From the IMG/VR virus record IMGVR_UViG_2541047905_000015: a stretch of 6,732 nucleotides of DNA; one strand, 5' to 3'. The translations under genes were made by a program, and so were the position numbers. Each line of letters starts with the position of its first letter. The stretch's first letter is position 1. The stretch comes from a virus (lineage: Duplodnaviria; Heunggongvirae; Uroviricota; Caudoviricetes). This document shows, piece by piece, positions 1,788 through 6,732 of the stretch. A model generated the notes under the pieces. That model made no database searches and was not told where the DNA came from. It saw nothing but the letters and a program-made list of their open reading frames with translations.

Positions 1788-4700
1788 ATGACAGTAAAAA
1801 TTTCTGGCGTGCTTAAAGATGGCACAGGAAAACCAGTACAGAACTGCACCATTGTGCTGAAGGCCAGACGAACCAGCAGCACGGTGGTGGTGAACACGGT
1901 GGCCTCTGAAAATCCGGATGAAGCCGGACGTTACAGCATGGATGTTGAGCATGGCCAGTACAGCGTCACCCTGCTGGTTGAAGGTTTTCCGCCTTCACAT
2001 GCCGGGACCATTACCGTCTATGAAGGTTCCAGACCAGGTACGCTGAATGATTTTCTCGGTGCCATGACGGAGGATGATGTCCGACCGGAGGCACTGCGCC
2101 GCTTTGAGCAGATGGTGGAAGAGGTGTCACGTAACGCCTCCGCGGTTGCACAGAATACGGCAGCCGCGAAAAAATCAGCCAGCGATGCTAGTGCATCAGC
2201 CAGCGAGGCGGCAACTCATGCAACCGATGCTGCAGCCTCAGCACGTGCCGCCAGCACGTCAGCCGGACAGGCCGCGTCGTCGGCTCAGTCAGCGTCTTCC
2301 AGCGCAGGAACGGCATCGACAAAGGCCCGTGAAGCAGCAAAAAGTGCTGCTGCTGCAGAGTCATCAAAAAGCGCGGCAGCTACCAGCGCCAGTGCCGCGA
2401 AAACGTCAGAAACGAATGCCGCAGCATCACAAAAATCGGCAGCCACTTCTGCATCCACAGCGACCACGAAGGCGTCAGAAGCTGCCACCTCGGCACGGGG
2501 TGCGGCGGCCTCAAAAGAGGCAGCGAAATCTTCAGAAACGAATGCATCATCAAGTGCCAGTAGTGCAGCTTCCTCGGCAACGGCGGCAGGAAATTCCGCG
2601 AAGGCGGCAAAAACGTCCGAGACGAACGCTAAGTCTTCTGAAACAGCAGCGGGACAGAGCGCCTCAGCTGCGGCAGGTTCAAAAACAGCGGCTGCATTAT
2701 CTGCCAGTGCCGCGTCAACAAGTGCCGGGCAGGCCTCAGCCAGTGCCACCGCCGCCGGAAAATCGGCAGAAAGCGCCGCATCATCCGCTTCAACAGCCAC
2801 AACGAAGGCTGGCAAAGCCACTGAGCAAGCCACTGCAGCAGCGAGGTCTGCTTCTGCAGCAAAAACCTCTGAAACAAATGCAAAGACTTCAGCAGACAAT
2901 GCTGCTTCCTCTAAGGCGGCAGCCGCATCGTCAGCCAGTTCAGCGGCGTCATCGGCATCATCTGCGTCTGCTTCAAAAGATGAGGCGACCAGACAAGCGT
3001 CAGCAGCGAAAGGTAGTGCCACGACAGCAACAACGAAAGCATCAGAGGCGGCAGGCAGTGCGACGGCTGCATCTCAGAGCAAAGTTGCTGCTGAATCCGC
3101 GGCAACGCGCGCCGAGACAGCAGCAAAACGGGCAGAGGATATTGAATCCGCCGTGGCGCTGGAGGATGCGAGCACGACGAAAAAGGGGATAGTACAGCTC
3201 AGCAGTGCAACAAACAGCACCAGTGAAAAGCTGGCGGCAACGCCAAAGGCAGTTAAAACTGTTAAAGATAGTTCAGTTCAAAAAACTGGCGACACAATGG
3301 GAGGGCAGTTAAAAATCAGCACGATAAATGCTCTTCGAATATTCAACCAAGCCTTTGGCCTTATTTTTAGGCGTTCCGAAGATCATCTTCATCTTATTCC
3401 GACTAATGAAGGGGAGGGGGAAAATGGAGACATCGGTTCATTAAGACCATTCTCTATAAACTTAAGATCAGGGTTGGTGTCCATCGGTAATGGACTAAAA
3501 GTTGGTGGTAGTGTTACTGGTAATTTGACCGGAAACGCAGATACTGCGACCAAGATCAAGACAGCACGTAAGATTGGGGGCGTGGCATTTGATGGATCGG
3601 CAGATATCAACTTGCCTGGAGTCAACGCTACCGGTAATCAAAACACTACAGGTAATGCTGCGACCGCCACGAAACTTCAGGCAGCCAGAACGATTAACGG
3701 TGTGTCATTTGATGGTAGTGCAAATATCACATTGACCCCTTCAAATATTGGGGCATTGGCATTAACTGGAGGGACTCTTTCAGGTGGTTTAACTGCTGCT
3801 GGTGAGGTTATTTCAAGGTCAGCAAATGGTCTGCGTATTGCCTATGGCAACTATGGATTCTTTATCCGAAATGATGGATCAAACACATATTTTATGTTGA
3901 CAGATTCGGGTAACAGTCTTGGTACGCACAATAGCTTAAGGCCGTTTATAATTAGTAACCATACTGGCAATGTTACAATTGCAACTAAATTAAACGCGAG
4001 TGGTGGTATCACTGGATCTTTATCGGGTAATGCAAGCACAGCAACCAAATTGCAAACTGCAAGGACAATTAACGGCGTAAAATTTGACGGCTCGGCAAAT
4101 ATTGAAGCGTTTCCGCCAGGTGTTCCGCTGCCGTGGCCATCAGATACACCACCTGCAGGTTATGCAATCATGCAGGGGCAGACGTTTGATAAGGCAGCAT
4201 ATCCGAAACTGGCTATTGCCTATCCTTCAGGTGTTATTCCAGATATGCGCGGCTGGACAATCAAGGGCAAACCCGCCAGTGGCCGGGCCGTATTGTCTCA
4301 GGAACAGGACGGCATAAAATCGCACACCCACAGCGCCAGCGCATCCAGTACGGATTTGGGGACGAAAACCACATCGTCGTTTGATTACGGCACTAAATCC
4401 ACGAATAACACCGGGGCGCATACGCACAGTCTGAGTGGCTCTACGGGGTCTGCCGGTGTTCATACTCATGGTAATGGTATTCGTTGGCCAGGAGGCGGCG
4501 GTTCTGCGTTAGCATTTTATGATGGCGGTGGGTTCACTTATGTCCAGAATTCACAGTATCAAGTAAGCCCGGAGACTTCTTCCTATAGATCGTATTATCA
4601 ACGTATTCAGACACAGTCAGCAGGTGCTCATACCCACTCGCTGTCTGGTACTGCAGCAAGTTCTGGCGCACATGCACATACTGTAGGTATTGGTGCGCAT

Positions 4701-4814
4701 ACGCACTCCGTTGCGATTGGTTCACATGGACACACCATCACCGTTAACGCTGCGGGTAACGCGGAAAACACCGTCAAAAACATCGCATTTAACTATATTG
4801 TGAGGCTTGCATAA
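1788..4814 (+). CDS. stf: Side tail fibre protein, mosaic: lambda Stf-like N-terminus, Ala/Ser-rich shaft, tail-fibre repeat module, collar plus His-rich tip
   Basis: 1008 aa. The N-terminus ([22 protein letters not shown]...[14 protein letters not shown]) and the C-terminus ([62 protein letters not shown] ... [31 protein letters not shown]) match lambda Stf as I remember it. Its TAA stop overlaps the tfa start as TAATG (4812-4816). Confidence 0.93.
2130..3140 (+). repeat. Low-complexity Ala/Ser/Thr-rich imperfect tandem repeat region encoding the stf shaft
   Basis: About 330 codons dominated by GCN, TCN and ACN. The motif AAK(T/S)SETNA recurs at nt ~2401, ~2527, ~2611 and ~2861. This region also produces long spurious ORFs in other frames and on the opposite strand. 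Confidence 0.7.
3529..4107 (+). repeat. Three copies of a ~28-aa phage tail-fibre repeat inside stf
   Basis: [28 protein letters not shown] (nt ~3529-3614), [28 protein letters not shown] (~3650-3733) and [28 protein letters not shown] (~4027-4107). They resemble the Pfam 'phage tail fibre repeat' family (Phage_fiber_2, from memory). The surrounding stretch 3250-4080 looks more AT-rich than the rest of stf. Confidence 0.6.
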
Positions 4815-5398
4815 TGGCATTCAGAATGAGTGAACAAGCACGGACCATAAAAATTTATAATCTGCTGGCCGGAACTAATGAATTTATTGGTGAAGGTGAC
4901 GCATATATTCCGCCTCATACAGGTCTGCCAGCAAACAGTACCGATATTGCACCACCAGATATTCCTGCTGGCTTTGTGGCTGTTTTCAACAGTGATGAGG
5001 CATCGTGGCATCTCGTTGAAGACCATCGGGGGAAAACGGTTTATGACGTAGCGTCAGGGGACGAGTTATTTATTTCTGAACTCGGTCCGTTACCGGAAAA
5101 TGTTACCTGGTTATCGCCGGAAGGGGAGTTTCAGAAGTGGAACGGCACAGCCTGGGTGAAGGATACGGAAGCAGAAAAACTGTTCCGGATCCGGGAGGCG
5201 GAAGAAACAAAAAACAACCTGATGCAGGTAGCCAGTGAGCATATTGCGCCGCTTCAGGATGCTGCAGATCTGGAAATTGCAACGGAGGAAGAAACCTCAT
5301 TGCTGGAAGCCTGGAAAAAGTATCGGGTGTTGCTGAACCGTGTTGATACATCAACTGCACCTGATATTGAGTGGCCTACGAACCCTGTCAGGGAGTAA
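4814..5398 (+). CDS. tfa: Tail fibre assembly protein (chaperone for Stf), lambda Tfa-like
   Basis: 194 aa, same length as lambda Tfa and closely matching it as I recall it ([82 protein letters not shown]...). Start is translationally coupled to the stf stop. Confidence 0.93.
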
Positions 5399-5447
5399 TC
5401 ATTGGGATTATGCCGCAGCACGTCTTAAGCAAGAACGTGCTGCGGTT
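5233..5447 (+). repeat. Direct repeat copy 1: tfa 3' end plus ~50 bp downstream
   Basis: Aligns by eye with 6282-6497 at an offset of ~1050 bp, roughly 85-90% identical. It covers the last ~54 codons of tfa, the stop, and the downstream TAATCATTGGGATTATGCCGCAG...ACGTGCTGCGGTT. Confidence 0.8.
5413..5445. terminator. Hairpin between the convergent tfa and methyltransferase genes (candidate bidirectional terminator)
   Basis: Perfect 11-bp stem CCGCAGCACGT (5413-5423) / ACGTGCTGCGG (5435-5445) with an 11-nt loop. A T-run (5456-5461) follows on the + strand. No U-tract on the reverse strand, so termination for the methyltransferase would need to be U-tract independent. Confidence 0.4.
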
Positions 5448-5452
5448 GGATG

Positions 5453-6121
5453 CTATTTTTTCCCTGAAGCGGAAAACATTACTACAGTACCTTGAACCTT
5501 GGTTTTAACATTCTCGAAATGCTCTGAGAGTATATGTGTTAAGCCTTCTTCGGAATCTTTTGTGTTTGAAAAGATGCCTTTCTGATTGTAAATGCGCATC
5601 AGTTTTTGACCGAAGCTATTGTGCACAACTCCATCGCCAAGAATTGTGGCTCCGTATAGAGTTCCATCGTCAGTTAAGGCCTGCGCCGCATTGCGTATTA
5701 CACAGCTTTTTGTAGATATATTTCCAGGCAGGCAGTGAAGAAGGTAAAACATGGAAATGGAATCAAATTGACCATGTAACGCCGCGGGATAAGGTTCAAA
5801 AACATCATGGCTAATTTTATGTTTAATTTTTGATTCCCCAGCCCTTGTAGATGCCGCGTTCAGGCTAGCTTCGTTCAAATCCATTAAAGATATCAGACTA
5901 CTCTCAGGTACGTGAGTAAGGTAAAACCCAGTTCCAACACCAATATCCAGATGGTTGTTACCTACATGTTCCAGAAAGTGTGGAAGAAGGTGTTCCTTTG
6001 TAGGACATCCCCATGCAAGCCGATTTGATACTCCCAAAACCCACCAGTCATAAAGCTTTAGGGTAAGTGGTGTGTAAATTTTAGCCCCATCATCTGTGTT
6101 TTTTTTCATTGATTTCACCAT
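5453..6121 (-). CDS. Class I SAM-dependent methyltransferase of unknown substrate (moron), resembling YbcY of the DLP12 prophage
   Basis: 222-aa reverse-strand ORF with a Rossmann-fold SAM-binding motif I (HLDIGVGTGFYL), an acidic motif II (LMDLNE), and FDSISMFYLLHCLP. No DPPY/NPPY or PC-type DNA-methyltransferase motifs. The likely true start is the second Met (nt 6109, giving 218 aa), preceded by GGTGA. Composition looks clearly more AT-rich than the tail genes. Convergent with tfa. Confidence 0.8.
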   Translation of the reverse strand: MVKSMKKNTDDGAKIYTPLTLKLYDWWVLGVSNRLAWGCPTKEHLLPHFLEHVGNNHLDIGVGTGFYLTHVPESSLISLMDLNEASLNAASTRAGESKIKHKISHDVFEPYPAALHGQFDSISMFYLLHCLPGNISTKSCVIRNAAQALTDDGTLYGATILGDGVVHNSFGQKLMRIYNQKGIFSNTKDSEEGLTHILSEHFENVKTKVQGTVVMFSASGKK

Positions 6122-6150
6122 GTTATAGTTTTATTTGTGAATTAAATCAA
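6122..6150 (-). promoter_or_regulatory. Putative sigma70 promoter for the methyltransferase moron
   Basis: On the reverse strand: -35 TTGATT (complement of 6145-6150), 17-bp spacer, -10 TATAAC (complement of 6122-6127), then GGTGA and the ATG at 6109. Near-consensus spacing and hexamers; sequence-only prediction. Confidence 0.4.
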
Positions 6151-6177
6151 TTATGGCGATGAATTACAAGGGGTTAA

Positions 6178-6447
6178 ATGCTGCCGCAGCATAGCGATAT
6201 TGAAATAGCCTGGTATGCTTCGATACAGCAGGAGCCGAATGGCTGGAAGACCGTCACCACACAGTTCTACATCCAGGAATTCAGTGAGTATATTGCGCCA
6301 CTGCAGGATGCTGTAGATCTGGAAATCGCAACGGAGGAAGAAAGATCGTTGCTGGAGGCATGGAATAAATATCGGGTATTGTTGAATCGTGTTGATACAT
6401 CAACTGCACCTGATATTGAGTGGCCTGCAAATCCTGTCAGGGAGTAA
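6178..6447 (+). CDS. Truncated/chimeric tail fibre assembly protein fragment: novel 37-aa N-terminus fused to the Tfa C-terminal ~52 aa (resembles tfaX)
   Basis: 89-aa ORF with AAGGGG 4 nt upstream of the ATG. Residues ~38-89 are near-identical to the Tfa C-terminus; the N-terminus ([37 protein letters not shown]) is unrelated to Tfa. It may be a translated remnant or a pseudogene. Confidence 0.6.
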
Positions 6448-6497
6448 TCATTGGGATTATGCCGCAGATACGTCGTATGCAGGAACGTGCTGCGGTT
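6282..6497 (+). repeat. Direct repeat copy 2: 3' end of the tfa-like fragment plus ~50 bp downstream
   Basis: Same orientation as copy 1. Encodes ...[51 protein letters not shown], against ...[51 protein letters not shown] in tfa. Confidence 0.8.
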
Positions 6498-6561
6498 AGT
6501 TTGTGAGCTTTCGATAGTGGTTGTTATTTTTGCCCTTATTTGTTCCGGAGGCCATGGTTCA

Positions 6562-6732
6562 ATGGTCCGTCTGCCCCCTGTGGTGATGTCAGCAAAATCA
6601 GCCACTGCGCGAACCACAATAGCCCGGGAAGATGCTGAAGATCACCAGGTAAAGCTGTCAGCGCAGAAACTGGAAGAACTGCTCGCATCAATGGTTAAGG
6701 ATGAGGTTGATCGCAATGATGGGATTTATTGA
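6562..6732 (+). CDS. Small hypothetical protein (56 aa from ATG 6562; the ORF is open from 6451 if an upstream TTG or GTG is used)
   Basis: ORF ends with TGA exactly at the window edge. GGAGG at 6547-6551 lies 10 nt upstream of ATG 6562. Product MVRLPPVVMSAKSATARTTIAREDAEDHQVKLSAQKLEELLASMVKDEVDRNDGIY is charged and probably helical; I recognise no family. Confidence 0.35.
   Translation: MVRLPPVVMSAKSATARTTIAREDAEDHQVKLSAQKLEELLASMVKDEVDRNDGIY

Follow-up and report, generated by a model that had tools for sequence, protein, structure and literature searches.

At the right end of a lambda-like prophage, a methyltransferase gene is found between an intact tail fiber assembly gene, tfa, and the 3' part of a second one, tfa'. 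The stretch analyzed here (hereafter the window; 6,732 nt of the IMG/VR Caudoviricetes record IMGVR_UViG_2541047905_000015) is 100% identical to Escherichia coli 118UI, where the prophage occupies ompW and the gene order is J, lom, stf, tfa, methyltransferase (minus strand), tfa pseudogene, a further pseudogene, truncated ompW, yciE, and the trp operon. The intact tfa (4814–5398, plus strand) encodes 194 amino acids, is annotated by the NCBI pipeline PGAP as a tail fiber assembly protein (WP_000885577), and is 91.5–91.7% identical at the DNA level to the tfa of lambda, the phage that the left part of the window matches; its product covers positions 1–130 of the Pfam profile Caudo_TAP (PF02413) with 151.5 bits (cut-off 22.1; E 1.9e-44). 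The methyltransferase (5453–6121, minus strand) is a class I S-adenosylmethionine-dependent enzyme of 222 amino acids and of the YbcY family, recognized through Pfam Methyltransf_12/23/25/11, and is transcribed leftward, between tfa and the attachment site attR. A spacer of 56 nt (6122–6177), carrying the predicted methyltransferase promoter, separates it from the open reading frame (ORF) of tfa' (6178–6447, plus strand; 89 amino acids), which resembles K-12 tfaX and was identified as a 5'-truncated tfa by Pfam, BLASTP, and PGAP.

The methyltransferase is bracketed by two direct repeats. Copy A (5234–5447, plus strand) consists of the last 54 codons and the stop codon of tfa plus 49 nt downstream, and copy B (6283–6497, plus strand) comprises the corresponding part of tfa' and its downstream sequence. 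The original prediction, made from the letters of this DNA, had described repeats of ~215 bp in the same orientation with 85–90% identity, and a pairwise alignment of 5233–5447 against 6282–6497 bore out its coordinates, its estimate of identity, and its gene order: 193 of 216 columns are identical (89.4%), at an offset of 1049/1050 nt. A repeat finder reported the same pair as two segments, one of 197 nt (5222–5418 vs. 6271–6467; 89% identical) and one of 28 nt (5420–5447 vs. 6470–6497; 89%), separated by a 1-nt indel, the right copy being one base longer. The left edge of the homology is sharp at 5234/6283 (AGTGAG) and the right edge lies at 5447/6497: the 84 nt to the left (5150–5233 and counterpart) are 33% identical, which is the chance level, and the 53 nt beyond the right edge 26%. 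The coding part (5234–5398) is identical at 147 of 165 positions, the first 20 nt past the tfa stop codon at all of them, and the copies have exact runs of 39 nt (5339–5377) and 35 nt (5384–5418) in common, compared with a longest exact repeat of 17 nt in 200 shuffles of the window. By our own count from the alignment and the translations, the 18 coding differences alter only five amino acids, which is the pattern expected if both alleles were functional during their divergence. A hairpin belongs to the repeat, as had been proposed, and is found in both copies: hairpin A (5412–5446) has a perfect 11-bp stem (CCGCAGCACGT / ACGTGCTGCGG) and an 11-nt loop, whereas hairpin B (6461–6496) is degenerate. 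The methyltransferase had been placed exactly between the repeats; its ORF does lie inside this interval but does not fill it, the rest being taken up by the spacer and by a leader that forms the beginning of tfa' (6178–6282).

The structure of tfa' is that of a leader (residues 1–35) followed by the conserved C-terminal domain of Tfa (residues 36–89). Against PF02413 it scores 88.3 bits, with residues 31–86 on profile positions 75–130 only, and is thus a C-terminal fragment; by BLASTP, residues 27–89 match residues 132–194 of the resident Tfa at 81% identity. The 105-nt leader is unrelated to resident tfa (33% identity) and matches no Tfa N-terminal domain, so that copy A belongs to a complete two-domain Tfa and copy B does not; PGAP calls tfa' a pseudogene without its N-terminus. 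The Tfa proteins of P2, Mu, P1, and many other phages align solely to the C-terminal stretch (residues 32–86 of tfa'), indicating that the left repeat edge is a protein-domain boundary. Tfa is described as modular, with a variable N-terminal fiber-binding domain and a conserved C-terminal helical trimerization domain, in the part of PMC9608196 that deals with North et al. 2019. Judged by these alignments, copy B is the remnant of a second, different tfa allele that has lost its 5' part, in agreement with the earlier proposal that the tfa genes of two related phages were involved: it is 11% diverged, with 15 of the 18 coding differences counted as silent, and has an unrelated leader.

To determine the prevalence of the arrangement, we used the segment 6100–6290, which covers the methyltransferase start, the spacer, and the leader. 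It was found in 3868 of 5426 complete E. coli genomes (at a coverage of at least 80% in 3437), and the matches are nearly always annotated as methyltransferase and tail fiber assembly protein. The K-12 prophage DLP12 has the same joint, within a series of tfa pseudogene, frameshifted methyltransferase, second tfa pseudogene, and appY; we take the first three to be tfaD', ybcY', and tfaX' of the K-12 nomenclature. DLP12 agrees with the window in these three elements, their order, orientation, and joint, with 96.9% identity over 5.0–6.4 kb. However, all three are pseudogenes in DLP12 (tfaD without its 5' part, ybcY frameshifted, tfaX with a stop codon and a different 3' end) and the prophage is located at argU, whereas the window has an intact tfa and methyltransferase and its prophage lies in ompW. 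Literature searches on ybcY and tfaX yielded gene lists only. As the identical methyltransferase/tfa' joint is found in thousands of genomes and in different prophages, one ancestral event is indicated rather than repeated acquisition, and on this comparison of genomes the joint is most simply read as a single old event that was inherited as a block. An acquisition by this prophage itself does not fit a joint shared by ~3400–3900 complete genomes. The arrangement is common and already annotated in K-12, and general mosaicism at conserved boundaries is established. With a median of three places per E. coli genome matching the query 4814–6732 (from tfa to the window end), recombination partners are plentiful.

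The methyltransferase appears to behave as a moron, a concept for lambdoid phages introduced by Juhala and Hendrix: it has a low G+C content, a predicted promoter, and a hairpin, and is absent from collinear relatives. The G+C content is 0.385–0.45 along the gene versus 0.47–0.525 in tfa. A sigma-70-like site is predicted on the minus strand of the spacer (6177–6150), and for the corresponding K-12 ybcY/tfaX spacer, a genomic SELEX (systematic evolution of ligands by exponential enrichment) study lists divergent RpoD binding together with H-NS (PMC3946193). Hairpin A follows 6 nt past the methyltransferase stop codon. In lambda, tfa and the hairpin run directly into ea47 without a methyltransferase, and the gene is also absent from three collinear ompW prophages (loci L214, L215, and L216). 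The right edge of the moron lies at ~6205, the point of divergence of variants in which ompT takes the place of tfa'; in this position next to ompT, the methyltransferase and its hairpin also exist without copy B. As in morons, which are mentioned in PMC9122126, an extra gene with deviant G+C, its own predicted promoter, and a terminator-like hairpin is inserted between elements adjacent in lambda and L214; unlike in morons, a 270-nt gene remnant is present here, so that the 215-nt flanking homology falls outside the moron definition. No transposase was found and no terminal inverted repeats were reported around 5448–6282, and the flanking repeats, with 215 nt and 89% identity, are unlike short identical target-site duplications. 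PADLOC and NCBIfam gave no specific family for the methyltransferase, and its weak similarities in the PDB, to UbiG and juvenile-hormone acid methyltransferase, point to no substrate. Enterobacter has homologues with 61–64% identity that are regular chromosomal genes and have no tfa in their vicinity. A 45-residue ORF (5371–5508) that overlaps hairpin A and the methyltransferase 3' end, recorded as a hypothetical protein or, in a K-12 record, as a nucleocapsid protein, is probably a spurious gene call.

The original prediction had expected empty sites with a single tfa. As a query for these we used a synthetic in-register recombinant in which copy A up to 5376 is joined to copy B from 6426, with the respective flanks. 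Six complete genomes match it in one piece, with 98.0–99.3% identity, and represent the same ompW prophage without the methyltransferase; in the three that were inspected, J, lom, and stf precede a single tfa, which adjoins the right flank of the window. The locus L214 shares 97.9% identity with the window across 5 kb on its left side and 100% on its right side. The sites in its tfa are of the A type as far as 5338 and of the B type after 5377, and its hairpin is B-type as well, which places the switch within the 39-nt identical core. Exactly one repeat unit (1049 bp) separates the filled from the empty alleles, and no further scar is seen, as expected for the product of homologous recombination in the repeat, in either direction.

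Exchange through the repeats, another expectation, is borne out by breakpoints inside the repeat on both sides of the cassette. On the right, at least four contexts are found downstream of tfa' (that of the window, a DinI gene, a host junction at potB, and an insertion sequence [IS]), and the 18 coding sites that distinguish A from B form many mosaic haplotypes in related loci, such as a tfa' leader with a mostly A-like repeat and the DinI flank, or a left copy with B-type last sites. A combination of A-type hairpin and DinI-type flank (L068) was considered as a scar of methyltransferase loss and rejected: it is present in 453 genomes and is better regarded as another mosaic combination. On the left, homology to the window starts within copy A, between 5233 and 5304, behind unrelated fiber genes in many genomes (H8–H17) and in isolated phages (H36–H41). 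Even the left copy is reduced to a remnant in phage 2G7b and at locus L010, and the whole repeat-methyltransferase-repeat block must therefore have been placed behind a different tail-fiber module.

The block is not confined to lambdoid loci. In L209/L210 (3637–5270), a diverged tfa-methyltransferase-tfa' block followed by DinI lies near smpB/ssrA, behind a P2-type tail-fiber module (Baseplate_J, Tail_P2_I, a P2-type fiber, and Tfa); its presence in both lambdoid and P2-like loci suggests that the methyltransferase cassette crosses phage families. Between this P2-like prophage and the window, the synonymous divergence (dS) is 0.02 in the methyltransferase and 0.11 in the leader, compared with 0.62 in the repeat part of tfa' and 0.35 in upstream tfa. 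By these distances, the P2-like locus would have a young cassette core whose flanks were swapped at the repeat.

The explanation that we prefer, with a probability of about 0.75, is that two tfa 3' modules were brought together by one illegitimate joint and that homologous exchange through the resulting repeats followed. The cargo had been thought to be gained by recombination between the tfa genes of two related phages. The foreign allele in copy B supports this, but homologous exchange between two tfa genes alone cannot duplicate the tfa end, hence one illegitimate joint is needed. This joint (~6205–6282) would have connected the upstream side of the leftward methyltransferase moron with the interior of another phage's tfa, possibly by unequal exchange between co-resident or tandem phages or prophages. 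Its product, stf-tfa1-hairpin-MT(-)-'tfa2-hairpin-next cargo (MT, methyltransferase), would have been viable, with tfa1 intact and a cargo gained. From then on, the methyltransferase would have had 215 nt of homology on both sides to a module found in most Tfa-encoding phages, including some P2-like ones, and RecA- or Red-type homologous recombination could move it to other phages, alter its flanks, or delete it. The exact runs of 39 and 35 nt are long enough for efficient recombination by either system. A methyltransferase flanked by tfa homology in this manner would explain how the cassette spread and came into a P2-like context, how its flanks were swapped, and why a few empty alleles exist.

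We consider it unlikely that tfa' was instead retained for a function of its own, either as an 89-residue trimerization-domain protein (e.g., a decoy against the tail-fiber assembly of competing phages) or as the candidate small RNA IS009 of Rfam (RF02111). The ORF is intact in the window with a good ribosome-binding site, AAGGGG, 5 nt ahead of its ATG, it is 88–89 amino acids long and intact in 78 of ~103 fetched copies, and the SELEX list gives RpoD binding in both directions for the K-12 spacer (PMC3946193). However, among the fetched copies ~12 have the last third replaced and ~10 are shortened by a stop codon or frameshift, the K-12 copy has an internal stop, the O157 copy is cut by IS66, and PGAP treats the ORF as a pseudogene; the low dN/dS of its conserved part can be explained by the swapping of functional alleles, given a dS of 0.62 next to 0.02 in the adjacent methyltransferase. 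As to the RNA, the IS009 model scores 225.2 bits on 5157–5355 (gathering score 117) and 112.5 bits, slightly under that score, on 6201–6404 in copy B. The former match lies inside the coding sequence of the intact tfa, so that membership in this family is uninformative about an RNA function: what the family models is apparently the coding sequence of tfa and not an RNA gene, and an IS009 match is best read as a tfa fragment.

A local tandem duplication of the resident tfa 3' end, with the methyltransferase inserted between the copies and no second phage involved, is very unlikely. The copies are direct, in register, and close together, as such an event would leave them; but their 11% divergence is mostly silent, a typical pattern for a pair of alleles that have both been functional during their divergence, the 105 nt in front of copy B do not resemble resident tfa, the B haplotype and its variants are found in other tfa alleles and contexts, and the methyltransferase with its hairpin exists beside ompT without copy B.

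The tfa 3' end had further been predicted to precede alternative cargos. We scanned viral contigs (IMG/VR) for a 35-mer common to copy A, copy B, and lambda, which is present in at least 120 stretches; this sample is redundant, and the counts refer to the matches listed. Among these, 113 occurrences with enough downstream sequence fall into at least 20 downstream classes: the methyltransferase (56), DinI (18), the right flank of the window (12), lambda ea47 (5), a catalase/yciEFG-like set before the methyltransferase as in O157:H7 (3), and a host junction (3), the rest being singletons or pairs. Pfam identified among the other cargos CdtB, a TIR protein, a reverse transcriptase, an McrB-like AAA_5 ATPase, a DUF2971 protein, an N6/N4 DNA methylase, and type III secretion system (T3SS) effectors belonging to two families, IpaB_EvcA and OspG-kinase. 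At the effector locus L085, the genes for effectors are interspersed with two tfa 3' remnants. The alternative cargos are thus as foreseen, and the idea of the tfa 3' end as a socket for accessory genes is supported, although it restates known biology at higher resolution, and most of the other cargos are bounded by the hairpin without a second tfa fragment.

The hairpin therefore deserves separate consideration as a boundary element. Hairpin A begins 13 nt past the tfa stop codon, and its 81-nt context folds with −30.8 kcal/mol (z −4.5 on the plus and −5.1 on the minus strand); hairpin B, with a bulge and mismatches, folds more weakly (z −1.3). Across 22 variants, 95.5% of the cells of the 11-bp stem are paired and three pairs show compensatory changes, a modest covariation. 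The hairpin also occurs without tfa sequence: directly 3' of the methyltransferase in O157-type loci (L004, 3995–4036), after cdtABC (L018, 8123–8157), and after pinQ-ydfK-ynfT (L009, 5821–5856). In lambda, the hairpin after tfa (22573–22608) recurs 1.6 kb further on, between ea47 and ea31 (24161–24195; L003 5189–5223), so that ea47 is bracketed by direct hairpin repeats. The second lambda element with its flank (24162–24265) is 88% identical to the hairpin-plus-flank found directly after tfa in DinI-type prophages and is present, mostly unannotated, in 193 phage records. The GenBank record of phage HK633 labels the element attP (20680–20760; L217 2505–2585) by similarity to the MG1655 ykgJ/yagV spacer, which suggests a further chromosomal copy or a mis-assigned attachment site. 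Solo hairpins are preceded by plus-strand A-runs that give leftward transcripts a U-tract, and on this basis the hairpin is most likely a terminator or 3' stabilizer of the transcripts of leftward cargo genes.

That the hairpin is the target of a dedicated site-specific system, comparable to integron attC sites or IS200/IS605 elements, with cassettes moved by an enzyme, has little probability. At least six different left contexts join exactly at the hairpin base, each leftward cassette has one hairpin at its 3' end, and there is the attP label in HK633; no recombinase or transposase travels with the cassettes, however, the hairpin is conserved in sequence and not in structure alone, and many breakpoints lie in the coding part of tfa instead. 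The A-runs fit an intrinsic terminator of leftward genes, in which case selection would keep the junctions there. Least credible of all is a remnant of an invertible tail-fiber segment such as Mu G, P1 C, or e14 P, because the duplicated tfa or stf ends beside fiber genes that typify these switches, and the pinQ found directly after tfaQ in a Qin-like relative, are set against repeats that are direct here rather than inverted, a window without an invertase gene of the Gin/Cin/Pin type or a second stf 3' end, seven main ORFs scanned without a recombinase domain, and an interval that holds a methyltransferase with its own predicted promoter.

Several observations weigh against the proposed joint followed by exchange, and against the proposed role of the hairpin in termination. 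With the same right flank, there are ~375 filled but only ~6 empty alleles, so methyltransferase loss would be at most rare. Ordinary, functional tfa alleles beside the methyltransferase can have the B-type 3' end as well; chimeric tfa genes may thus be standing variation, and the six empty alleles may reflect either gain or loss. The donor allele of copy B is hypothetical: tblastn found no full-length tfa with the leader 6178–6282 in 50,697 phage records, nor was one present among 5.8e9 proteins, and only fragments of at most 142 amino acids carry the leader in these proteins and phage genomes. A blastn match in an apparently full context (H100) was rejected as the donor, as it represents a different deletion that joins stf to tfa'. 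The lack of a second tfa fragment at most alternative cargos also belongs here, as does the absence of a U-tract, in either direction, at the hairpin beside tfa. A simple terminator scan found the hairpin in L004 only, although its loop limit of 8 nt misses the tfa hairpin and makes it uninformative for L046 and L009.

Under the preferred explanation, the hairpin would also bound other cargos in the way the tfa 3' module does, as a shorter element. It is conceivable, though we hold this only tentatively, that the tfa 3' module and the ~36-nt hairpin are portable recombination linkers, and that the b-region of lambdoid and some P2-like phages is made up of exchangeable promoter-gene-hairpin cassettes. 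If true, this would explain why ea47, cdt, defense genes, T3SS effectors, and the YbcY methyltransferase are found at hairpin-bounded positions. No description of such a role of the tfa end or the hairpin in lambdoid phages was found in the searchable literature. The closest described analogue are the promoter-stem-loop (PeSL) cassettes that shuffle genes in T4-type phages (PMC2839356), of which the linkers would be the homologous-recombination counterpart. In both cases, short repeated stem-loop elements flank nonessential genes at boundaries of insertion, deletion, or replacement, and recombination of neighboring copies deletes or moves genes in PeSL and would do so here. In contrast to PeSL, the phage group is different, the sequence unrelated, and the repeat includes the end of a protein-coding gene; PeSL units combine a repeated promoter with the stem-loop and feature excised mini-circles, whereas here the recurrence of the stem-loop at cargo boundaries (lambda 24161–24195, L018, L004, and L009) is known from sequence.

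The position of the cargo resembles that of two further systems. In 2001, Mirold et al. reportedly described how the sopE cassette passes, at the tail-fiber region, from one type of Salmonella phage to another, P2-like or lambda-like; one cassette is thus said to lie behind the tail-fiber genes of two unrelated phage families, as does the methyltransferase block, with another cargo and in another host. The exchangeable effector loci carry cargo at the end of lambda-like prophages, including those in ompW (PMC8112680). They share with our locus the position after the tail-fiber genes at the prophage end and a cargo that varies among related prophages, but their cargo consists of T3SS effectors and not of a methyltransferase. 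The 21-bp attB described for ompW prophages of enterohemorrhagic E. coli (PMC8112680) is absent from the window and unrelated to the hairpin. The P2 hotspot of Rousset et al. (PMC9122126) was rejected as a precedent: it lies beside cos (old/tin) and not at a tail-fiber gene.

The locus is a well-documented case of known lambdoid mosaicism, as represented by morons and exchangeable effector loci, rather than a system of a new type; the finding is a refinement of known biology that leaves the principle of mosaicism at conserved boundaries unchanged. It adds a quantified single origin, natural empty alleles, two phage families, and a recurring hairpin that also brackets lambda ea47. The result is a sequence-level picture of how one accessory gene became a very widespread E. 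coli prophage cargo, in about two thirds of complete genomes. It explains why the same cassette is found behind different fiber genes, even a P2-like tail, why empty and filled alleles exist at one locus, and why virulence and defense genes (cdt, T3SS effectors, TIR, and reverse transcriptase) occupy the same slot. For the annotation of prophage cargo, tfa fragments and the hairpin are useful landmarks.

Three minor observations concern the surroundings of the cassette. Downstream of copy B, between tfa' and attR (window 6544–6732; L001 10731–11000), PGAP places a DUF4376 pseudogene interrupted by an internal stop, possibly a third chaperone-like remnant; Pfam on the translation did not reproduce this call and gave only a weak DUF5646 match. 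In O157:H7-type prophages (L004 1331–3544; L006 and L131), the interval from tfa to the hairpin/methyltransferase holds a manganese catalase gene together with paralogues of yciE, yciF, and yciG. The genuine copies of these three genes are neighbors of the ompW site where the window's prophage is inserted, a hint that host DNA flanking an integration site was captured. Upstream of tfa, stf (1788–4814) contains a long Ala/Ser/Thr-rich stretch (2160–3130) of degenerate 33-nt repeats (motif AAKTSETNA; six copies listed), and weak matches to Rfam isrG on the opposite strand of this stretch are probably composition artefacts.

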